Assembly: GCF_055900595.2 (NCBI RefSeq)
Contig: NZ_JBVWEU010000002.1
Length of the DNA: 64,000 bases
Origin: a plasmid
Strand: one strand, 5' to 3'
Below, in pieces: positions 7,177 to 37,252 of this stretch. Made by a program: the position numbers and the translations under genes. Below the pieces are notes generated by a model. That model was not told where the DNA came from and searched no databases. It worked only from the letters and a program-made list of their open reading frames with translations. Every line of letters begins with the position of its first letter. Position 1 is the stretch's first letter.

Positions 7177-7908
7177 TCAGAGAATATTTGCGATTGATTT
7201 GGCCAGCTGGTCTTCGAGAACAGGCTTCGCCTCTTCAAATTTCAGGTTAACCTTGTTCGCATTTGAGACCACACGGGTCTGGTATTTATGCTGGTTACCT
7301 GTTTCAGTACTGGTCTGAATTTTCGCACCTGATGTGCCCTGACGCAGGGCGGCTACATTGTCCGTTGTCACCGTTGCCTTAGTACGCTCTGCAATCTGCA
7401 CATCCGTGATCATGGTATAGTTCACATCTTCCACCATCGCATCTGCAGCCATACCCACCAGACCGGCAGCAAGGCCCACACCGAGTGTGGCACCGGCAGA
7501 ACTGGAATTATATCCGGTGATACCGGCACCTAACGCTGCACCAACTGCTGCGCCTTCATAACCACGGTTCAGCCATCCCTGAGACTCCCGCAGATCCATC
7601 TTATCGGCCTTCAGCACATTCGCCTGAATCCAGTAGTAGGCTTTATCCGGAGAAGTCACCACCTGATACCCTTTTGCTTTCACAGCATCAGCAATTTTGC
7701 CCTGCAGCCCACTCATGTCTTTATCAGACGTGTTTTTGATCTGCAGAAATACCGTGCGTTCGCTGGCGGGTTCAAGCCAGATGGTCTCACTCATCTGAGT
7801 CTTCACCTCAAGGTTACGCTTCTTGATTGCTGTGCTCATCGCACCACACCCTGAAACGGCCAGAGTGGAACTGACCAGTGCAACCATCATCAATTTTTTT
7901 GTTTTCAT
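7177..7908 (-). CDS. traT: TraT surface-exclusion outer-membrane lipoprotein (243 aa from [21 protein letters not shown])
   Basis: ORF 7177..8007 contains the recalled TraT sequence. True start taken at the internal Met preceding the lipoprotein signal peptide. Confidence 0.93.
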
Positions 7909-7939
7909 CAAATTACCTTTATTACAAACCACAGTTTTC

Positions 7940-8455
7940 TTATCGCCTGTCATCATAGTCCTGCCAACAAGTCCCAAAAGTATTTCCTGCTGAATCAAAT
8001 CCTCCATGCATAGCTAATCCTGTTGCCGGATTAGTACGATAAAAATCCACATAATCAAAATTCACATCATCAAAATCCAGATGCAAATCTTCATTAGTTT
8101 GTTCATTTACCTGAGATTGCATCCATTCTCTTACACTTACACAACCACTAATTCGCCTTAATTCGTATAGTGTACCAATGATAAAAACCATCAGGCTTAA
8201 TAACGGAGAGAGTAAGGAAGATACTGGCATCAGTATATACCAAACGCCTTTACTGAATTTAAACTCATCCGACACATGCCGTTTTTTTCGTATTTGAGAA
8301 AATAACCATATAAACAATCCCTGCCATAGTACAATAAAGCACAGGATAAAAACTGTTTCGGCACTCCCCCAATCAGCCAGATAACAGGCAATGAACTGTA
8401 TCACCGTCACCAGAGCAATATGAGCTAAATTTTTCATTATCATCTCCCCATACAA
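7940..8455 (-). CDS. traS: TraS entry-exclusion inner-membrane protein
   Basis: Hydrophobic ~170-aa ORF in the canonical position between traG and traT. Exact start uncertain (Met1, Met5 or Met7). Confidence 0.7.
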
Positions 8456-8457
8456 TA

Positions 8458-11280
8458 TTATTGCTTGTGCTTATCCTGATACTCCTTTGCTCTTTTCATC
8501 AGTTCCTGTGGACTGTCAGCCCCGGGCATTCTTTCCTGACCCGATTTTTCTTCATTATATTTATTATTCTGAGATAATGCCTCTGTTTTATGGTGATTTT
8601 GTAGTTCAGAATACTGTCTTCCTACAATATTTTCTTCGCCACGTATGCTGCTCTGAGTATCTCCGATATTGCCTCTGTATTCTGTGACCATATTATCAAC
8701 CTGATGTTTTACATCATTACGGATATTACTGTCCTGCGTTCTTTGCTCAATAATGGCCTGATGCCCCTGATGATCAGCAATAATATCCTGGCTGCCACCC
8801 CCCGAAGGTACGCTCTCCATTCCTTTACCGATGTCCCCACGGGATTCACGCCAGGCATTATCAACACCAGGCTGCACCTGTTCCTGAACAAAAGACCACG
8901 CCATAGCCCGACGGCGTTCTGCAATCTCCGGGGAACTGGTGTTTGTCAGAATAGCTTCGGCATCCTGCGGCGCGTGTTTCATCACATACTGTGCAAACTG
9001 TTGCGACAGGTCTTCACTCATCTGCCCACTCATGCTTTCAGTACGGGATGCCATTTCAGCATATTCATGGCTGCGGGTCATATTCGTCGTGTACTGGTCG
9101 TAACTCTGTTTTGCTGAGTTCAGGGCTGCAGACAGCTGGTCCACACGGGAATCGGCATTATTGTCCGTATGGCTGCCGGATTCACTGACCTTGCGACTGG
9201 TAAAGTAATCGCTGGCCTCTTTAAAGTCTTGTGTAGCCCTGGCATCGATATCATGGCGAGCATCATGGCTGGCCCGTGAACCACTGCTGGCCTGATGCGC
9301 ATCCTCATCACTCCAGTCAATACTTGCCCGACCACCACCTCTAACACCTACGCCACCACCAACACCAAGAATTTTAGGTTTAACCCCCCATTCAGCATGA
9401 GCATCGCCATACATCCCCGCAGAACCTCTCGTACTTCTTGATGCCAGTTCTCTTGTCGCCTGCTCATTACTGATATTATGCGCCTTCGCATAGCTTTCCA
9501 CTGCGCTGCGCATACGGCTGGCCATCATGGAGTCCTGTGCACTCATCGTGCTGTCAGCACCACCGGTGACAGAATCACTGCTCCCCCGGTTAGAACCAAA
9601 CTGACTGAGCGAGTTCCAGGCACTGGCAATACTGCTGCTGAACCCATGCAGGGCGCTTTCTGCTCTGTTCGACGCCTCCCGGGCCATTTCCTGTTGTGCC
9701 GCCGCAATCTGACGCGTTGCATTGATACCGACCGGTAAACGGGACATCGCCCCGCTCGCATCCATCACCATATTACCGTCACGGGTCTGTGTGGCGGTTG
9801 CGCCACTGCCGGTCTGGTACATCATCTGACCAAACGACGTGGTGCTGTTGGTGCTCCAGCTGAATCCGTTCACGTTTTCCGTCTGCATGTTGCCGTAGGA
9901 GTAATTACCGTCAACCACACTACCTGCCGCACTGGCAGTCGGGCTGATAGCAGAGGAAGCGAAATGGCTGTACACACTGGAAAATCCGGCCCCGAGTCCC
10001 CTGACCATCATCCAGGATAATGGCGGGATCATCATGGAAAGATACCCGGCAGTGGAAGCCAGATCGGAGTATTTCAGCTGTATCTGTGAAATTTCCGAGA
10101 GCACCACCGGTGCACCATTCTGCTTCGCATAAAATGTCATGGCGCTGTTCAGAATGGCGTACAACATTGGCCATGACTGCAACCACATCAGGGCAAACAC
10201 ATAGCCTTTCAGGACGGACAGCGTCAGTTTGTTGAAGACAGCCGCCAGTACCAGAAGCGGGAAAATACCGATGGCGATCCCCGTCAGGATGGTCTGCGTC
10301 ATGGGCAGTGTCCGCATCGCCACATGACCGATGGAGACATGTGCCAGACGTTGCTTCTCCATCGATGACGTGGTGGCCAGATTCACCAGGCTGGCTGAAT
10401 CACCATTACGCGCGGCATAACTGGTGATCCCCTCCTTCAGCGCATTGATGGTGACATTCTGGCGGATGATCTGGCTGGCTGATTTACTTGAGCCATAGAA
10501 GTAACTGTAACTGTCGCCAATCAGCGTACTGAACAACAGGTTCGGATCAGGGCGTCCACCAAATAGCTGCTGGGCATAATAATGCCAGGTTTTTCCGCCA
10601 CTCTGTGTATCCAGATTCAGCTTGTCTTTCAGCGAAACCGACGCGTCCTTACAGGTCACGAAATTATTATTGCTGTCATAAACGCCCCGTAGCGGACTGG
10701 GGCGGGAAAAAATCAGCGTGTAGGGATCAGCGGAGGCCATCAGCTCCTCCAGCGTGTATTTGTGGTTCAGGTAAATATCCCCCATCACGCAGTTCTGCAC
10801 ATAATCCTGGAAAAGATTGGCGATTTCCGGATTGCGGGACAAAAAGTCGGTGCTTTTTGATACCAGTTCTGCGCCAAACAGCATCCCCGTTTTGCTGTAG
10901 GTGACACTGTCCGGTTGCGTGAAGATCATCTCGTAACTGGCCACCATTGCATGCCCGATACGGGTCGTCAGTGAAAGTGGCATCGCCAGTCCGACCGGCA
11001 CATTATCCACCCGGTGAACTTTGACCAGGTCACTGTTATCAATAATCTGCACCGATGTGCGGACATTAACCAGCAGGCTGATAAGCACAAACACGGCCAC
11101 CCAGCCCAGCAAATCCATCACGTTGTGCCGCTGTACCCACATTACGGCCACCGCGAGAACAGACAATGTGAGCGCAATTTTTTCAATGGAATCCCACGTC
11201 CGGGTCCCCATAAAGGCGGCAATGGCATTCAGGTTATTCCGCAACCACTCACCACCGGCAATCACATAAACTTCATTCAC
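8458..11280 (-). CDS. traG: TraG mating-pair stabilisation / pilus assembly protein (940 aa)
   Basis: Size and position (F TraG is ~938 aa). N-terminal polytopic membrane domain plus large periplasmic C-terminal domain. Confidence 0.93.
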   Translation of the reverse strand: MNEVYVIAGGEWLRNNLNAIAAFMGTRTWDSIEKIALTLSVLAVAVMWVQRHNVMDLLGWVAVFVLISLLVNVRTSVQIIDNSDLVKVHRVDNVPVGLAMPLSLTTRIGHAMVASYEMIFTQPDSVTYSKTGMLFGAELVSKSTDFLSRNPEIANLFQDYVQNCVMGDIYLNHKYTLEELMASADPYTLIFSRPSPLRGVYDSNNNFVTCKDASVSLKDKLNLDTQSGGKTWHYYAQQLFGGRPDPNLLFSTLIGDSYSYFYGSSKSASQIIRQNVTINALKEGITSYAARNGDSASLVNLATTSSMEKQRLAHVSIGHVAMRTLPMTQTILTGIAIGIFPLLVLAAVFNKLTLSVLKGYVFALMWLQSWPMLYAILNSAMTFYAKQNGAPVVLSEISQIQLKYSDLASTAGYLSMMIPPLSWMMVRGLGAGFSSVYSHFASSAISPTASAAGSVVDGNYSYGNMQTENVNGFSWSTNSTTSFGQMMYQTGSGATATQTRDGNMVMDASGAMSRLPVGINATRQIAAAQQEMAREASNRAESALHGFSSSIASAWNSLSQFGSNRGSSDSVTGGADSTMSAQDSMMASRMRSAVESYAKAHNISNEQATRELASRSTRGSAGMYGDAHAEWGVKPKILGVGGGVGVRGGGRASIDWSDEDAHQASSGSRASHDARHDIDARATQDFKEASDYFTSRKVSESGSHTDNNADSRVDQLSAALNSAKQSYDQYTTNMTRSHEYAEMASRTESMSGQMSEDLSQQFAQYVMKHAPQDAEAILTNTSSPEIAERRRAMAWSFVQEQVQPGVDNAWRESRGDIGKGMESVPSGGGSQDIIADHQGHQAIIEQRTQDSNIRNDVKHQVDNMVTEYRGNIGDTQSSIRGEENIVGRQYSELQNHHKTEALSQNNKYNEEKSGQERMPGADSPQELMKRAKEYQDKHKQ

Positions 11281-14239: not shown

Positions 14240-14983
14240 TTAAAAATTGGGTTTAAAATCTTCAGAAACGTTCAGGAATTGTTTTGCCAGGTCGTCCTGC
14301 GAAATAAAGCCGTATGATAACGGGCGAACACTGCCCTGTTTCGGGTCAACCAGCATCATGGCCGGGAAATATTTCACGCCGAGGCGCTGCGCCTGCCCCT
14401 GGTCAGTCCGGGAATCCGGCAACAGCGGATTAATCACACCATCCACGGAAACGGGAATAACACTCAGACCATAGGTATCCCTGAAGCCATTAATGACCTG
14501 CGCCAGCTGCCCGTCGATGGGGTCCTGCCCCCGGTAAAAGAACATGATGCCGTAGTGTTCAGCCAGTTTCGCAATGGCCTGTCGCTGCTGCACCTGGTCT
14601 GCCGCCAGCTGGTTCCGGACCGTGCCGTTGTAATGGCTGTACTGCAGGTTATAGTCCAGTTCGGGATGCGCCAGCATGGCTTTTTTGGCGCTCATGGTGA
14701 AAAGCCCGGCCTGCTGAGTCCAGTAATTCTGCAGCCGGAAATATTTCACAAAATTATCCACGCCGGGATACAGAATGGCTTCGTACAGCGCCCGCTTTGT
14801 TGCCGTCTGCAGTGCGGCCAGTTTCTGCATAATGTCCGGCTCCTGACGGGGGGCTGCAGGTACTGGTTTATTTTCTTTTTCCTTCGGATTTATTTTCTCG
14901 TTATACCACTGCCAGCCTGCATCTTTTCCTGACGCCGGAAAAATAAAGCAGCAGAGTAACAGTGGCAGTAATGCTTTATTCAT
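14240..14983 (-). CDS. traF: TraF pilus assembly protein, thioredoxin-like fold (247 aa from MNKALLPLLL)
   Basis: ORF 14240..15013. Start trimmed to the Met giving the F TraF length and a signal peptide. Confidence 0.9.
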   Translation of the reverse strand: MNKALLPLLLCCFIFPASGKDAGWQWYNEKINPKEKENKPVPAAPRQEPDIMQKLAALQTATKRALYEAILYPGVDNFVKYFRLQNYWTQQAGLFTMSAKKAMLAHPELDYNLQYSHYNGTVRNQLAADQVQQRQAIAKLAEHYGIMFFYRGQDPIDGQLAQVINGFRDTYGLSVIPVSVDGVINPLLPDSRTDQGQAQRLGVKYFPAMMLVDPKQGSVRPLSYGFISQDDLAKQFLNVSEDFKPNF

Positions 14984-15203
14984 CTTCATTCCTTTCATCA
15001 CTTTTTCTTTCATCAGGTTTCTGCAGGTCAGTCAGGGCAGAAAAACAAAAATACAGAATAAACAGGAGCACACCGGAGTAAAAAATAACGAAAGCAGCAG
15101 CAAGTATCTCACCTGCAGTGGTTTCTTTTACCGTATCCCACGACCAGATAATTACCGGGGAAATGACAATCGCTGTAATCAAAAGCCGGATGCGTATTCT
15201 CAT
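14976..15203 (-). CDS. trbE: TrbE small membrane protein, probably 5'-truncated (75 aa versus ~86 aa in F)
   Basis: Hydrophobic small ORF overlapping the traF start. Its ATG directly abuts the IS-type terminal motif at 15203, and an in-frame stop lies 4 codons upstream. Confidence 0.6.
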   Translation of the reverse strand: MRIRIRLLITAIVISPVIIWSWDTVKETTAGEILAAAFVIFYSGVLLFILYFCFSALTDLQKPDERKSDERNEDE

Positions 15204-15290
15204 GAAAGGAGATCACTCAATAACTTCCATCGAGATCGGGTAATAACGGCGTTTTTCAAGGTAGTTGTCGCCTTTTGTAATAAAATTACG

Positions 15291-16196
15291 TTATGCCGCT
15301 TCTTTTTCTGGATTCAGATAAACTGCCTGAATGAGTTCCCAGTCACGCAACTGTTTGCTCCAGCGCTCAGGATGACGTTTGCGAGCTTCGCGATAAACTT
15401 TTTTTCTGGCTTCCAGTATTTGTGCGTCAATTCCGCGATGGCGTTCATCCGGAGTAACATACTTAATACCGCTGTGCTTGTGTTCCAGGTTGTACCATCG
15501 CGTGAACTTGCTTAACCAACTTCTGGCTTCATCTATGGTTCGAAAACCATTCTCTGGCCACCATGGACAATACTTAATCGTCCGGAAGAGCGATTCGGAA
15601 TAAGGGTTATCATTGCTGACCCGGGGACGGGAATAAGAACTTAATACGCCAAGCGCGTACATTTTTGCCAGTAACGTACAACTGCGCATTGGTCCTCCGT
15701 TATCAGAATGAAGCACGAGATTGCGGGATGAACATTTTTCATTCCATACAGCACGTTGAAGCAGTTCTGCCGCATACTGCCCAGATTCTTTCGTAAATAC
15801 TTCGGCAGCAATAATTTTTCGGCTATAAATATCGACGATCATATAGAGATAAAAATGCTGCCCCTTAACCCACGATGGGATATAACTAATATCCCAGCTC
15901 CACACCTGGTTGGGGGCTACAGCTTTGAGTACTTCAGGCCGCTTATATTGGTGTTCACGGGTTCTCCTTGTCAGTTGGTTAGCTGATTTTAATACGCGAT
16001 AAAAAGTTGATTCTGACGCGATATAAACCCCTCTGTCGGCAAGAGTCGGAACAATAATATTCGGAGACAATGATGCAAACTCCGGAGAATTGCATACATC
16101 AAGTATTCTTAATCTTTCTGTTTCTGACAGTTTATTCCCCGGGGTACGCCTTGATGCACCTGGTCTCTGATCTGTATGAACCACACCACCCTGCAT
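15291..16196 (-). CDS. IS3-family transposase OrfB (DDE/rve integrase core, 301 aa)
   Basis: Motifs WSWDISYIP, HSDNGGPM and YSESLFRTIKY (E-x7-K) are typical of IS3-family / retroviral-integrase catalytic domains. Confidence 0.85.
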   Translation of the reverse strand: MQGGVVHTDQRPGASRRTPGNKLSETERLRILDVCNSPEFASLSPNIIVPTLADRGVYIASESTFYRVLKSANQLTRRTREHQYKRPEVLKAVAPNQVWSWDISYIPSWVKGQHFYLYMIVDIYSRKIIAAEVFTKESGQYAAELLQRAVWNEKCSSRNLVLHSDNGGPMRSCTLLAKMYALGVLSSYSRPRVSNDNPYSESLFRTIKYCPWWPENGFRTIDEARSWLSKFTRWYNLEHKHSGIKYVTPDERHRGIDAQILEARKKVYREARKRHPERWSKQLRDWELIQAVYLNPEKEAA

Positions 16197-16315
16197 CCAA
16201 CGTTGAAGTGTTCTGACTGAAATACCAATACACTGGCAGGCTTGTGTTTTTCTCGCTCCTGAACTGACAGCCTCGCTGACCAGATTAATAATCTTCTGCC
16301 GCTCTGGAAGAGGAG

Positions 16316-16861
16316 TCAGCCTTCCTCGCTGTTGTCCCAGAGGGCATTGAACTTTTCCCTTAACATCAAAAGAGCAGCTGCTTCCGCCAGAGCTTTATCT
16401 TTACGGAGAAGTTCTTTTTCCAGTTCCCGTAACTGGGTCTTTGCTTCGCGTAATTCTTTATCAGCACGGCGACTTTCTGCCATTTTCATTTCATGAGCCT
16501 GAATGGATATAGCTCTCCATTCTTTAACTTGCTCAACAAATAACCCCATTCTCCGACAATAATCAGCCAGTTCCATTTCAGATAATGTTGCAGTTTCAAT
16601 TACAACAGAAAATCGTCGCTCCGGTGTCCATTCATTTCCATCGACAGAAGATATTTTTTCATTTTCAGGTAACAGGCCTTGTTGCACCAGTTCAAGTCTC
16701 CATCTTGCTATTACTGAAGGGCTCAGGTCCAGTTTACGAGCAATATGCCGTATGGACCAACTATAAGGTGGTAATAACCAGGTAACACCTTGTTCTTTTA
16801 TATCAATTGGTACTGCATGTGCGGGCATAGTCTCTCTCCTGTGTAAAAATCTAGGCGACAA
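16316..16861 (-). CDS. IS3-family transposase OrfA (HTH DNA-binding, leucine-zipper-like C-terminus)
   Basis: Immediately upstream of orfB in a different frame. The 120-nt gap between orfA stop and the first orfB ATG may indicate a frameshift-fusion arrangement or decay. Confidence 0.7.
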   Translation of the reverse strand: MSPRFLHRRETMPAHAVPIDIKEQGVTWLLPPYSWSIRHIARKLDLSPSVIARWRLELVQQGLLPENEKISSVDGNEWTPERRFSVVIETATLSEMELADYCRRMGLFVEQVKEWRAISIQAHEMKMAESRRADKELREAKTQLRELEKELLRKDKALAEAAALLMLREKFNALWDNSEEG

Positions 16862-17020
16862 CTATGCTGACACAGGGGGATAACATTTGAACAGATCGCT
16901 GAATAACATCGATGGAGATCACTTTTGACTCATTTTGTTATTCAGTGATCTCCATCAATGTTATTGGAACTTCACAGGTGTGTTGATCTGTATCTTTTGC
17001 CATTCCGGTAAAGGATACCT

Positions 17021-18562
17021 ATGCCAACAGTTCCAATTTCTATGAGAAAACTTAAAGAAATTCTTAGGCTTAAATACGGTGTTGGACTCAGCCATCGACA
17101 AATTGGTCGTAGTCTTGCAATCTCCCCTTCCGTTGTATCCAGATATGCTAATCGGGCGGCTCAACTTGGCATAAAGCAGTGGCCCTTACCTACAGGATGG
17201 GATGATACAAAACTAAAACATGCGTTCCTTCAGACCCAGGTTAAGATGAAGAAGCACTCTCTGCCTGACTGGGCTACAGTACACCGGGAACTGCGTAATA
17301 AATGCGTGACGCTGCAGCTACTCTGGGAAGAATACTGTGAGCGTAATCCAGGCGGTTTTTACAGCTATAACCATTACTGCCGGATGTACCGTGAATGGCT
17401 CAAAACCACTTCACCATCAATGCGTCAGGTACATAAAGCTGGCGAAAAACTTTTCGTTGATTACTGTGGACCTACCGTTGGCGTTACCGACCCTGAGACC
17501 GGAGAAATAAGAACTGCTCAGGTCATCGTAGCTGTTCTCGGGGCATCAAGTTACACATGGGCAGAGGCCACCTGGTCTCAGCAGCTTGAAGACTGGGTGA
17601 TGAGTCATGTTCGCTGCTTCCAGTGGTTGGGTGGCGTTCCTGAACTTGTTGTTCCGGACAATCTGAAAAGCGCCACATCCAGGGCATGTAAGTATGATCC
17701 TGACGTTAACCCTACCTACCAGCAGATGCTTGAGCATTATAATGTCGCAGTTTTGCCTGCGCGGCCACGTAAACCGAAAGATAAAGCCAAAGCTGAAGTT
17801 GGCGTTCAGGTTGTTGAACGCTGGATCATGGCCCGAATCAGGCATGAGATCTTCTACAGCCTTGCATCGCTTAATCAGCGCATTCGGGAGTTGCTGGAAA
17901 GACTGAATAACAAAATAATGCAGAAGTTGGGTTATTCACGTGCAGAACTCTTCATCCAGCTTGATAAACCCGCACTGAAGCCTCTTCCTGAAGCCAGTTA
18001 CAGTTACACCCTGGTGAAGAAAGTCAGAGTTCATGCCGATTACCACGTGGAAATCGACAAACATTACTACTCGGTTCCATGTTCGCTGTTAGGCCAGCAA
18101 CTGGAAGCATGGATCTCCGGAGAACTGGTAAGACTCTTCAATCAGGGGCAGGAGGTTGCTGTGCACCCGCGCAAGCGTACTTATGGCTACAGTACCCGCA
18201 ACGAGCACATGCCTGAAGCTCATCGACAGCATGCCACCTGGACGCCAGAGCGTCTTCTGGAATGGGCGGGGCACATAGGCAGTGAAACTCATAGTTATGT
18301 GCTTCATATACTGAACTCTCGTCCACATCCGGAACAAAGCTATCGCTTCTGCCTTGGACTCCTGAACCTTCATAAAAAATACAGTAAAGCCAGACTTAAT
18401 GCAGCATGTGCAAGAGCTCTGAAAACAAAGGTATGGCGTCTGTCAGGTATTAAATCGATCCTGGAAAAAGGTCTGGATAAACAACCTGTTCAGGATCCAA
18501 AACCAGATCTGTTATCCACGATGGAACACGAAAACGTACGCGGCAGTGAGTATTACCACTGA
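17021..18562 (+). CDS. istA: IS21-family transposase IstA (513 aa)
   Basis: N-terminal HTH plus DDE core typical of IstA. Followed 11 nt later by istB. Confidence 0.9.
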   Translation: MPTVPISMRKLKEILRLKYGVGLSHRQIGRSLAISPSVVSRYANRAAQLGIKQWPLPTGWDDTKLKHAFLQTQVKMKKHSLPDWATVHRELRNKCVTLQLLWEEYCERNPGGFYSYNHYCRMYREWLKTTSPSMRQVHKAGEKLFVDYCGPTVGVTDPETGEIRTAQVIVAVLGASSYTWAEATWSQQLEDWVMSHVRCFQWLGGVPELVVPDNLKSATSRACKYDPDVNPTYQQMLEHYNVAVLPARPRKPKDKAKAEVGVQVVERWIMARIRHEIFYSLASLNQRIRELLERLNNKIMQKLGYSRAELFIQLDKPALKPLPEASYSYTLVKKVRVHADYHVEIDKHYYSVPCSLLGQQLEAWISGELVRLFNQGQEVAVHPRKRTYGYSTRNEHMPEAHRQHATWTPERLLEWAGHIGSETHSYVLHILNSRPHPEQSYRFCLGLLNLHKKYSKARLNAACARALKTKVWRLSGIKSILEKGLDKQPVQDPKPDLLSTMEHENVRGSEYYH

Positions 18563-18573
18563 TACGGGATCCA

Positions 18574-19323
18574 ATGATGAATCATCTTTACGAACAACTG
18601 ACCGCACTTAAACTCACCGGCTTCCGTGATGCGCTTAAAAAGCAACTTGCTCAGCCGGGCACATACCAGGAGCTGGGCTTCGAAGAACGCCTGTCATTAC
18701 TGACAGCAGAAGAACTAACCTGCCGTGAAAACAGGAAGGCAGAGCGTCTGATCAAACATGCACGGTTCAGACTTAATGCTGAGTTATCAAAGCTGGATTA
18801 TCGTAACAATAGAGGGCTGGACAGGGCCCTCATCCGTTCACTCAGTCAGGGAAACTGGTTAACCCTGAAACAAAATATTTTACTGACCGGGGCCACCGGC
18901 AGCGGTAAAACGTTCCTGGCATGTGCACTTGGTCATAATGCCTGCCGACAGGGATACAAGGTCTACTATTATCGCCTTAAAGCGCTGATGGAACAGTGCT
19001 ATCAGGGGCATGCTGATGGAAGATACAGCAAACTTTTGACCAGGCTGAATAATAGCGATCTGCTGCTTCTGGATGACTGGGGGCTGGAACCTCTCTCATC
19101 AGAACAGCGTAGCGACCTGCTGGAAATAGTGGATCTGATGTACCAACGAGGCTCAATCATCGTAGTGAGCCAGTTGCCGGTGGAAAACTGGTACAAAATG
19201 ATCGGAGACTCCACACATGCGGATGCCATCCTAGATCGACTGGTTCATGGCAGTATCAAGATCGAACTTAAAGGAGAATCAATGCGGAAAATACAATCTC
19301 CGTTGACCGAAGGAGATCAGTGA
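18574..19323 (+). CDS. istB: IS21-family helper ATPase IstB (249 aa)
   Basis: Walker A LTGATGSGKTF and Walker B LLLLDDWG. DnaC-like AAA+ protein as in IS21 IstB. Confidence 0.9.
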   Translation: MMNHLYEQLTALKLTGFRDALKKQLAQPGTYQELGFEERLSLLTAEELTCRENRKAERLIKHARFRLNAELSKLDYRNNRGLDRALIRSLSQGNWLTLKQNILLTGATGSGKTFLACALGHNACRQGYKVYYYRLKALMEQCYQGHADGRYSKLLTRLNNSDLLLLDDWGLEPLSSEQRSDLLEIVDLMYQRGSIIVVSQLPVENWYKMIGDSTHADAILDRLVHGSIKIELKGESMRKIQSPLTEGDQ

Positions 19324-19482
19324 AGGTAATTTAAAAACGGTTCTGTGAAAGTGACACGAACCGATCTCCATCGATGTTACTCACCGATCTCCTTCACGGT
19401 AATACGCACCGGATAAGAAAATCAATAAAACGGTTCGACGTGAATATGACTTTCATCATTTTCCCCGGTTATTTTCCCTACC

Positions 19483-21291
19483 TTACTGTCCTGCCTGTTT
19501 CAGCTGGTCAGCAATCTGCTCTTTCACTTTCTGCGTCAGAACACCACTGTCCGGGATTTTCTGGTTATTCATCAGGTCTTCGTAGAAGTTAGTGAAATCC
19601 AGTCTGTCGAACTGAATTTTCTGCAGCTCATCAACCGTAATCCCCCGACAGTCAGGATGCTTCGCACTGCCAAAACTGATACGCAGCTGTCCGTTGCGCC
19701 CCTGCTGCTGGACTATCTGCGCCAGCTTCGAATCAAACTGACAGTAACTGCGTTTTTTCTCCAGGCAGACACCCAGCACTTTCTTCGAACAGAACTCTCC
19801 GACACTGACGGTCAGTTTGTTTGATTTTGCTTTAGCCAGGGCTTTTTCATCACTGCTGCATTTGGCCAGCCCGATGTCCTGTCCCCAGCCGCTGTCCTTA
19901 CAGCAGTTGCTGTATCCGGCTGCAGCCTTCTTACAAAATTTCGCCTGACCGGTGAAAGCACGGACATCCACCCCGTTCAGCGCCGCAACATCCTTACCTG
20001 CTGCGGCCAGTGCCGCCAGCTGAGAAACGGCTTCGGCAAAATCATTACTCTTCCCGCTCTGAGCCTTATCGCATTCGCCATCGAGACAGAAGACGTCTCC
20101 CCCACAGACCATCACTTTCCCGGATGTTTTTGACTCACAGGAGTACGTGGCATATTCATGCAGACAGGCACCTTCTTCGGAGTAAAAGGCACACTGGTGT
20201 GACACCAGGGTACAGGCTGGATTGTCGGTGTAGGTCTGACAGGTTCCCTTGTCTGCTGACTGTGTGACATACGTGTCCCGGTATGCCCAGCAGCTCTGGT
20301 ACATGCTGTATGACTGACCGTCTTTCACCAGCGTCCTGTTCCCGCCAGCCTCCGTACATTCTGTTTTTGTCAGTTTCCCCAGCTCCTTGCTGAACGGGCA
20401 GCTTTCAGACCAGACAACATACGGGGTGTACGAGGCTTTTTTTACCCTGACAACCAGACGCAGCTTCATTGCCGTATGACGTTTGAATTTTGTATTCCCG
20501 ACCCGGACGGGGTGAGATGACGTAAAAGCAACACCGGCAGTCAGTGTTTTCTGTACTGGTGTAAATGAGGCATCTGCTGAGTATTTGGCATTCCAGCTCA
20601 GTGGGGTTCCCAGTACTGTAATTGTCATAGGTACACTCTTCTGCAGGTAAGTACGACTCCAGCTGTAATGCGCATCGACAATTTCACCGGTAACGGGAGA
20701 GGTAATGGAGACAACATACTGACCATTCACTTCACGTGCAGGTAGCTGACTCATTTCATACTCCAGCGTCCGGGTTTCCCATGTGGTACTCCCCTGCAGC
20801 TCCATACGGGCAGTTCGTGTGCAGTACTGCTCCACCTGTAAATCCCGCTCACAGGTGTAATTCGTGTATTCACTCCGGCTAATCTCCTGCGCACTGCACT
20901 GCTGCCCGGTGTTTCCCACAATGCTGTCAGCCCGGTTCACCACATCCCTGCCGGTCTGGATAAACGGTGCATCCGGTGAAAGAATGTCTTTCGGCTTGTT
21001 CATGAATGACTCTGTGATGGTTTTTCCGGTTTCACCGGTCGCCCATTCCGTGGTGCCGTCATTTTTCAGGCCGCCATCCCCGCCGGCAGTCACGCCACCG
21101 TAGTATTTTGTCTCGTCCGGATTCGCGTTATAGCCGGGGATACTCTCCTGTGGCTTAAAGCCCTGAATACTGCTGCTTCCCTGTCCTTTGATCTGGTGAG
21201 CAAAATCAGAGCCGGCCCGGTAATCACTGTTGCTGTCAGCCTGTGCCATGCCGGCAACCAGAGCCAGTATCAGAGGTAAAATACGTTTCAT
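19483..21291 (-). CDS. traN: TraN outer-membrane mating-pair stabilisation protein (602 aa, Cys-rich)
   Basis: Size equals F TraN. Signal peptide, many conserved cysteines, synteny with trbC. Confidence 0.93.
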   Translation of the reverse strand: MKRILPLILALVAGMAQADSNSDYRAGSDFAHQIKGQGSSSIQGFKPQESIPGYNANPDETKYYGGVTAGGDGGLKNDGTTEWATGETGKTITESFMNKPKDILSPDAPFIQTGRDVVNRADSIVGNTGQQCSAQEISRSEYTNYTCERDLQVEQYCTRTARMELQGSTTWETRTLEYEMSQLPAREVNGQYVVSITSPVTGEIVDAHYSWSRTYLQKSVPMTITVLGTPLSWNAKYSADASFTPVQKTLTAGVAFTSSHPVRVGNTKFKRHTAMKLRLVVRVKKASYTPYVVWSESCPFSKELGKLTKTECTEAGGNRTLVKDGQSYSMYQSCWAYRDTYVTQSADKGTCQTYTDNPACTLVSHQCAFYSEEGACLHEYATYSCESKTSGKVMVCGGDVFCLDGECDKAQSGKSNDFAEAVSQLAALAAAGKDVAALNGVDVRAFTGQAKFCKKAAAGYSNCCKDSGWGQDIGLAKCSSDEKALAKAKSNKLTVSVGEFCSKKVLGVCLEKKRSYCQFDSKLAQIVQQQGRNGQLRISFGSAKHPDCRGITVDELQKIQFDRLDFTNFYEDLMNNQKIPDSGVLTQKVKEQIADQLKQAGQ

Positions 21292-36964: not shown

Positions 36965-37252
36965 TCAGCAGATCGCTCGGATATCGAGGCCGGCACGCTT
37001 AATCTGACGCAGGAACTGTTTGAAGTGATCGGCTTCCGCAATGTTGATATGGCGGAACTGCTTATCCACACCCTGACTGAGCGCGTAGCTATAACTGAAG
37101 GCCATCTTTTCCGGGTGGCTTTTGCGATATTTTTTCAGCTCAGTCAGGCTGCTGAATTCCAGGACGTCCCACTCTTCCCCGGTGTTTTTTTTCTTCCCGG
37201 CAACAAGAAGCGTGTACGACGCGGTGTTAACGTGGATATTTCGGGTACTCAT
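36965..37252 (-). CDS. Hypothetical leading-region protein (95 aa)
   Basis: ORF track. Immediately downstream of the Frpo-like element and co-oriented with the following gene. Confidence 0.5.
   Translation of the reverse strand: MSTRNIHVNTASYTLLVAGKKKNTGEEWDVLEFSSLTELKKYRKSHPEKMAFSYSYALSQGVDKQFRHINIAEADHFKQFLRQIKRAGLDIRAIC

Follow-up and report, generated by a model that had tools for sequence, protein, structure and literature searches.

An IS3-family element nested in the left end of ISEc12 within trbE of an F-like plasmid, and its probable targeting of IstA-binding repeats

The DNA analysed here (the window) is a stretch of 64,000 nucleotides from an F-like conjugative plasmid (NCBI RefSeq assembly GCF_055900595.2, contig NZ_JBVWEU010000002.1). 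It carries two nested insertion sequences (IS): an IS3-family element, which we call X, sits in the left end of the IS21-family element ISEc12, and ISEc12 itself is inserted in trbE. Judged from all the sequence comparisons together, it is very probable that this nesting arose through targeted transposition, i.e. that X was directed to the terminal repeats bound by IstA, the transposase of ISEc12. Positions refer to the window, and labels such as L001 denote records and loci used for comparison. The components of the nested pair and its immediate flanks are as follows.

14976-15190, minus strand: 3' part of the interrupted trbE; window 15091-15190 aligns to the intact trbE of L008 at 8235-8334.
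15191-15246, plus strand: left terminal inverted repeat of ISEc12, with the tip TG at 15191 and the repeats L1 (15191-15223) and L2 (15224-15246).
15243-15246, no strand: ATAA, left copy of the target duplication of X; the right copy is at 16880-16883.
15247-16879, minus strand: X, the nested IS3-family element, 1,633 bp, with identical ends in 10 other contexts (99-100% identical copies).
15291-16196, minus strand: orfB of X, the DDE (Asp-Asp-Glu) catalytic part; NF033516, IS3 family transposase, 173 bits against a cut-off of 160.
16316-16828, minus strand: orfA of X, 170 amino acids from the ATG at 16828, from the list of open reading frames; the coding-sequence start given by the Prokaryotic Genome Annotation Pipeline (PGAP) is equivalent in identical copies.
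16884-17020, plus strand: rest of the left end of ISEc12, preceding istA, with a third repeat (16892-16907) and a hairpin pair (16902-16923 and 16944-16965).
17021-18562, plus strand: istA, ISEc12 transposase, 513 amino acids, intact; NF033546, 310 bits against a cut-off of 160.
18574-19323, plus strand: istB, AAA+ helper ATPase, 249 amino acids, intact; NF038214, 270 bits against a cut-off of 200.
19354-19408, minus strand: right terminal inverted repeat of ISEc12, with R1 at 19377-19408, the tip CA at 19408 and R2 internal to R1.
19409-19456, minus strand: 5' part of trbE; in this right flank the match to L008 begins at 8330.

The case for targeting rests on the positions at which X and its relatives are found. 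All 15 fetched copies of X and of two related elements, X2 and X3, from E. coli and plasmids adjoin ISEc12-type termini. Three junctions recur. At L1, the insertion follows GGAGATCACTCAATAA, 33 nt from the left tip; at L2, the site occupied in the window, it follows CGAGATCGGGTAATAA, 56 nt from the left tip; and at R1 it follows GGAGATCGGTGAGTAA, 32 nt from the right tip. X2 and X3, about 75% identical internally and with the terminal 40 nt in common, follow this pattern even at diverged IS21-type termini, e.g. directly after TGCAAAATGGCATCTGAATCGATCGCAGTTTGG. The shared rule is that the junction lies 9 nt past GATC. The terminus type marked by TGCAAAATGGCATCTGAATCGATCGCAGTTTGG, in which the second repeat ends 56 nt from the tip, is used likewise by relatives of X in L013, L067, L080, L109 and L131. 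As a side observation, the target core GATC is a Dam site (15213-15216, 15236-15239 and 19376-19391 in the window, and in all target repeats), and the Dam methylation state might be a gate for IstA binding, for X targeting, or for both.

The rule could be put to a prediction. Simple insertions were known at that point for L2 in orientation 1 (the window) and for R1 in orientation 1 (L006, with the duplication GTAA). We wrote out the four junctions of site and orientation that had not been seen and searched for them in 5,426 complete E. coli genomes. The R1 orientation 2 junction was present in 22 records at 100% identity, one of which, L141, has TTAC on both sides. The L1 orientation 2 junction occurred in at least six records, including L142 with a 3-bp duplication, the L2 orientation 2 junction in four records and the L1 orientation 1 junction in two. 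Hence, all six combinations of site and orientation exist, which is a strong argument against descent from a single composite as the sole cause of the association.

A census based on a metagenome scan with the 23-nt end of X yielded 120 loci and revealed that this end belongs to a large IS3 clade. In the enteric subclade, GATC stands at position -13 in 23 of 29 distinct flanks, compared with 2 of 94 in the sister subclades (Fisher p = 2.5e-17). The enteric GATC flanks also have a TGCRWA tip, located 32-34 or 56 nt upstream, and at least eight different terminus sequences keep the same spacing from GATC to the junction. Members of the non-enteric subclades occupy unrelated sites with the 4-bp duplications ATAA, TTAA, ACCA, ATGA, CAAG, GTAA, GTCC, GTAC and AGCG; these clean duplications establish where members of the clade end and how long their target duplication is. 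On Vibrio, Enterococcus and Peptoclostridium plasmids, more distant relatives (OrfB 50-56% identical) have like ends and no IS21-like flanks.

The borders of ISEc12, 15191 (TGCGTATT...) and 19408 (...AATACGCA), follow from alignment to intact copies, from a 5-bp duplication and from an empty site. Intact ISEc12 has 2,581 bp, starting with TGCGTATT and finishing with AATACGCA; the composite ISEc12::X spans 4,218 bp (15191-19408), in agreement with the approximately 4.2 kb estimated for the longer element in a preliminary description of the sequence. In the intact copies of L001 and L002, window 15191-15247 is followed directly by 16880-19408, the two alignments overlapping by ATAAC, so that 15246 joins 16884 without a gap. 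This bears out the nesting of an IS3-family element within the multi-repeat left arm of a longer IS21-family element, one of two arrangements considered in that description. A megablast search against 72,556 plasmids gave thousands of copies that PGAP names 'IS21-like element ISEc12', and more than 2,000 intact copies of ISEc12 begin with segment 15191-15246. Over 2,529 bp, the identity to copies annotated as ISEc12 is 99.96-100%, and istA is 100% identical to copies that PGAP calls ISEc12. The left terminus is 98% identical to the first 57 bp of L001 and L002.

The outer element is ISEc12, a member of the IS21 family: it has istA and istB, terminal inverted repeats that end in TG...CA and consist of several direct repeats, and a target duplication within the range of 4-8 bp. 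IS21-family ends consist of direct repeats spaced by 23 bp (PMC10122671), and a 5-bp duplication has been reported for ISEc12 (PMC10711316). L1 and L2 each contain GAGATC-N5-ATAA (motif matches at 15209 and 15232), with repeat junctions 23 bp apart. The copy in the window resembles named ISEc12 elements in its identity of 99.9-100%, in istA and istB, the TG...CA tips, the multiple terminal repeats and the 5-bp duplication. It differs from other ISEc12 by a single substitution near the left tip (TGCGTATTCTCATG versus TGCGTATTTTCATG) and by the 1,633-bp passenger IS after L2.

X lies 56 bp inside the left tip of ISEc12, immediately following L2, and its genes face outward to that tip. Since ATAA flanks X on both sides in the window, and intact ISEc12 has GGGTAATAACATTTG only once, ATAA is a 4-bp target duplication of X. 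The duplications of the X lineage measure 3-4 bp (ATAA in the window, GTAA in L006, TTAC in L141 and TAT in L142), and nine clean 4-bp cases are seen in relatives. The inverted repeats of X, CGGCGTTTTTCAAGGTAGTTGTCGCC at 15247-15272 and CCCCCTGTGTCAGCATAGTTGTCGCC at 16854-16879, match in 18 of 26 positions. OrfA has two helix-turn-helix (HTH) regions and a leucine-zipper-like C-terminus; an alternative TTG start at 16861 would give 181 amino acids. orfA and orfB overlap in frames 0 and -1, and in 100%-identical copies PGAP marks a 'programmed frameshift' with two joined pieces. An OrfAB fusion (15291-16828) is made through this -1 frameshift, for which A-AAA-G near 16352-16358 is the probable slippery site. 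A duplication within 3-5 bp, the DDE profile and the frameshifted orfA/orfB pair thus agree with the IS3 family. In place of the IS3-typical TG...CA, however, X and all its relatives have the ends CGGCG... and ...GGGGG with a TAGTTGTC core. X is therefore a member of an atypical IS3 subclade.

At 99-100% identity, X is present in 99 records of plasmids and 242 of E. coli, ending at the same two bases; the window holds a single copy. The exact OrfA of 170 amino acids is found in public protein collections, and public protein sources give no IS name for X. A comparison of X with X2 (L011) shows about 75% internal identity, yet the two agree completely over roughly the terminal 40 nt at either end, which indicates either a strong constraint on the ends or an exchange of ends between lineages.

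With respect to the plasmid, the minus strand carries traF (14240-15013), trbE and traN (19483-21291). ISEc12 is flanked by the 5-bp target duplication CCGGA (15186-15190 and 19409-19413), and both flanks map onto the intact trbE of L008 with an overlap of 5 bp. The closest record is pMTY1886_IncF (NZ_CP128971.1), which is 99.9% identical across window 1-25000 apart from the insertion. It provides the exact empty site, in which the trbE flanks are contiguous and CCGGA is present once. The duplications recorded at the boundaries, as recommended in the preliminary description, are thus CCGGA outside ISEc12 and ATAA outside X.

Besides an intact trbE, pMTY1886_IncF has an ISEc12 without X elsewhere (96813-99393), with the 8-bp duplication GCTATAAC. 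The corresponding site, window 37088-37095, is empty in the window. Because the near-identical sister plasmid has ISEc12 at another site, the element has recently been active on this backbone. The length of the ISEc12 duplication varies between 5 and 8 bp (CCGGA in the window, GCTATAAC in the sister plasmid). At least four other independent ISEc12 insertions are distributed across traN-trbE-traF-trbB of F-like plasmids (L001, L002, L144, L145), and this region seems to be a frequent ISEc12 target, or one in which insertions are well tolerated. Two orders of arrival are equally conceivable, ISEc12 followed by X or the composite as one piece: the closest backbone has an empty trbE, and four other F plasmids have ISEc12 in the neighbourhood, at four different sites.

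In our reading, the sites that X and its enteric relatives use, in both orientations, are the inner edges of the repeats L1, L2 and R1, to which IstA binds. The insertion point lies exactly 9 bp past the GATC of each repeat, at 33, 56 and 32 bp from a tip. As a mechanism, we propose that the N-terminal HTH of OrfA and OrfAB reads the GAGATC block and sets integration 9 bp downstream, the transpososome of X docking on the sites of IstA. Provided that targeting is real, we consider the chance that this HTH directs it to be about even. In IstA, HTH-1 comprises residues 1-39 and touches, within each repeat, the inner conserved block, CS2 (PMC10122671). Residues 1-52 of the X2 OrfA align with residues 1-51 of IstA with 22 of 52 positions identical (E = 1e-6). 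For the OrfA of X, the match to IstA covers the recognition-helix region, with 12 of 28 residues identical (E = 9e-5). The OrfAs of the non-targeting subclades gave no such IstA match. The first 60 residues or so of the enteric OrfAs are 32-43% identical to IstA and 15-28% identical to their own relatives, while the rest of OrfA retains about 48% identity between enteric members (X2) and non-targeting relatives.

Several observations weigh against targeting or against the proposed role of the HTH. The similarity between the OrfA and IstA HTH regions is short. Pfam returned weak, generic HTH matches for the N-termini of OrfA and IstA, mostly with E >0.01, the exception being Sigma70_r4 on IstA (E 0.0005-0.0015). 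The N-terminus of X2 retains 34% identity to one non-targeting relative, so there is no clean domain swap. Junctions are off by 1 nt in L007, L015 and L142, and in L009 and L014 they lie 15 nt rather than 9 nt from a GATC. The census samples about 45 enteric copies, and the records containing most of X number more than 340. The exact ISEc12::X arrangement of the window was not found in any other record searched. Finally, most copies belong to small chimeras of X and ISEc12 tips, described below, and for these the association may in part stem from the descent of one composite.

The main rival to the HTH mechanism accepts that targeting is real and ascribes it to IstA, with X recognising repeat-bound IstA or the bend in its DNA. 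Many DDE transposases favour bent targets, and this fits such a reading, as does the weakness of the OrfA HTH similarity. The L1 and L2 junctions used by X fall on repeat borders, 23 bp apart, and it is at the R1-R2 repeat junction that the DNA is sharply bent, by about 70 degrees (PMC10122671). On the other hand, the enteric OrfAs have shifted toward IstA HTH-1 in the recognition-helix region and the non-targeting relatives have not. Moreover, X-type insertions are found in the termini of elements that no longer encode IstA, for which IstA would have to act in trans. Taken together, we regard recognition of IstA or of its bend as rather unlikely, albeit worthy of consideration.

A different explanation dispenses with targeting: X entered one ISEc12 end once, and the composite then spread by the action of IstAB in trans and by recombination. 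It draws on the fact that most enteric X copies are located outside a complete ISEc12 and have no adjacent istAB. Instead, they form chimeras, units of 1.7 kb in which X lies between inward-pointing termini. With IRL and IRR for the left and right inverted repeats, these include IRL33-X-IRR32, IRR'32-X-IRL'33, IRL56-X-IRR33 and mixed types. Direct repeats of 5-7 bp are frequent outside the chimera tips. The IRR'32-X-IRL'33 type recurs in L003, L011 and L073, at three unrelated sites with individual 5-7-bp flanking repeats, which suggests that IstAB in trans may also move chimeras, and the mixed outer ends of L012 and L127 show that recombination does occur. However, descent does not account for simple insertions with the 3-4-bp duplication of X in contiguous ISEc12 ends, at three repeats and in both orientations, four of whose junction types were predicted before they were found. 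Nor does it explain why the rule of GATC plus 9 nt is kept across at least eight diverged terminus types. In addition, the IstA of IS5376 requires two complete repeats per end in vitro (PMC10122671), and the common chimeras, at odds with this need, hold one repeat per end. Descent in place of targeting is therefore improbable.

If X was targeted to the repeats, the chimeras could have a simple origin. Two direct-orientation copies of X, one at each ISEc12 end, would recombine homologously, deleting istAB and leaving X between two tips. As insertion takes place in both orientations, paired-X recombination is the simplest route to such units. Two other routes were considered. Insertion of X into a pre-existing 65-bp end-to-end ISEc12 miniature was rejected, since the chimeras lack the expected 4-bp duplication. 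Insertion in one orientation only, with an adjacent deletion from the GGGGG end, is weakened by the orientation 2 insertions.

Two further sets of loci illustrate the fate of X copies. L009 and L014, both in the cdiA region of E. coli chromosomes, share locus and left junction, and their right junctions are 43 nt apart; the X copies are 99% and 96% identical, respectively, to that of the window. This suggests that L009 arose from L014 by stepwise deletion from the GGGGG end of X, or that X was replaced by recombination. In the metagenome contigs L057, L118, L139 and L068, an ISEc12-type terminus adjoins about 25 nt of the CGGCG end, beyond which the DNA is unrelated; here, targeted insertions have been cut down to remnants by later truncation.

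Chance nesting without site preference is in keeping with the restriction of the exact arrangement to the window and with the fact that nested IS are common on F-type plasmids. Yet it is very improbable in view of the flank counts of the census (23 of 29 versus 2 of 94) and of positions that recur to the base pair.

The remaining alternative concerns a motif from which the preliminary description had started. TGAAAGGAGATCACTCAATAACTTCCATCGAGATC is indeed present at 15203-15237 and resembles the right end of ISEc12, and inverted-repeat arms of 34 nt (15206-15239 and 19361-19394) are 79% complementary. The positions 15203 and 19395 that had been taken for the termini, though, lie 12 bp (left) and 13 bp (right) inside the true tips at 15191 and 19408. 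Tips at 15203/19395 with the flank GCGTATT... as target are ruled out by the alignment of intact copies and by the empty site. Similarly, the putative IS21 terminus at 16888 turned out to be a third repeat, internal to the left end of ISEc12 and immediately beyond the nested element, and the IS3-like element placed at about 15204/16887 actually spans 15247-16879. The hairpin pair could be corroborated: its arms (16902-16923 and 16944-16965) have 22 nt and are 95% complementary, and as single-stranded DNA, 16902-16965 folds with -17.4 kcal/mol (z = -5.5, equalled by 0 of 200 shuffles). GAGATC-N5-RTAAC occurs seven times in the window against 1.46 expected, a number reached by 0 of 100 shuffles, and five of the seven copies are inside the composite, between 15209 and 19391. 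As both the motif count and the hairpin exceed the shuffles, the initial observation is real and not due to chance.

It had also been suggested that the two elements share one unusual end architecture, with the motif at 15203 being an IS3-like end. The location of the motif (15203-15237) immediately outside the IS3-like genes would fit this scenario. It is nevertheless rejected as extremely improbable: relatives without any IS21-like flank, from Vibrio, Enterococcus, Peptoclostridium and many metagenomes, keep the ends of X, and 15191-15246 begins ISEc12 in its intact copies. X has its own imperfect inverted repeats of 26 bp, unrelated to those of ISEc12. Unrelated repeats had been expected to show that the similarity at 15203 is coincidental; this does not hold, because the motif belongs to the left end of ISEc12.

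Several known IS resemble X in part. IS1397, ISKpn1 and IS911, also of the IS3 family, strongly prefer a short, structured target: IS1397 and ISKpn1 choose host repeats, the palindromes of repetitive extragenic palindromic (REP) sequences and bacterial interspersed mosaic elements (BIME), and IS911 targets sequences that resemble its own ends. X differs from them in that its target is the transposase-binding repeat of another IS family, which is unlike its own ends.

The arrangement in the window matches that of IS1353 in IS1326 (In2, Tn21, R100), where an IS3-family element of about 1.6 kb directly follows the first terminal repeat of an IS21-family element. In R100 (L140, NC_002134.1, about 7380-9010), the first AAATTGACCCAC repeat of IS1326 is directly followed by IS1353, at a distance of 28 nt from the left tip. 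Like X, it is positioned between a terminal repeat and istA with its genes pointing outward. Unlike X, it has the typical ends TGGGG...CCCCA and an apparent 2-bp duplication (AC). IS1353 is a single known instance, in which a preference is not demonstrated, whereas X is recurrent. Membership of IS1353 in the lineage of X is ruled out, since neither tblastn nor blastn gave a significant match.

IS4321 and IS5075 insert at one set position within the terminal repeats of Tn21-family transposons (Partridge and Hall 2003, cited in PMC11187229). X is like them in inserting recurrently at a fixed position of a foreign terminal repeat. They have a DEDD recombinase with a seekRNA guide, one orientation and no DDE-type duplication, and X has a DDE transposase, both orientations and a 3-4-bp duplication. 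The IS4321/IS5075 group is thus the closest functional parallel to X, which is not a member of it. In the openly searchable literature, ISfinder being outside the search, no description of IS3-family targeting of IS21-family repeats was found, and the base-pair-precise target preference of X appears to be undescribed so far.

For the plasmid, the analysis settles what the mobile unit is: the 4,218-bp composite ISEc12::X, with complete tips, that interrupts trbE of the F transfer operon. Because X inserted after L2, the left tip stays contiguous with both repeats. Since the tips, both left repeats, the right end, istA and istB are kept, the 4.2-kb unit still has every cis site that its movement by IstAB would need. 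An insertion at L1 or R1, by contrast, would separate the two repeats that IstA requires. istA also keeps its 137 bp of upstream sequence with the hairpin. In IS21, abutted ends form a promoter; any such promoter that the ends of ISEc12 may form would now have 1.6 kb of antisense X between it and istA. The genes of X have the same orientation as the trbE remnant, traF and the rest of the transfer operon, and run outward across the left tip. A promoter and terminator scan of 15100-17100 gave no signal exceeding shuffles.

From a broader perspective, an IS3 subclade appears to have a safe landing site in the repeats to which the transposases of IS21-family elements bind, and host genes are thereby spared. 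Such targeting can cripple or hijack the host IS, and it yields small chimeras that clutter E. coli genomes and are annotated merely as 'IS3 family transposase'. For annotation, this means that fragments of ISEc12 ends beside X are best read as footprints of targeting, and not as independent ISEc12 remnants. If the IstA-like HTH explains the specificity, X would be a simple example of a DDE transposase that has gained a new target. It is conceivable, although less than evenly probable, that this IS3 lineage has turned into a parasite of other IS by evolving or capturing an IstA-like HTH-1, with its chimeras riding on IstAB in trans. If so, X would represent a natural case of DDE retargeting through the change of a DNA-binding module, and of two-level hitch-hiking between IS families.

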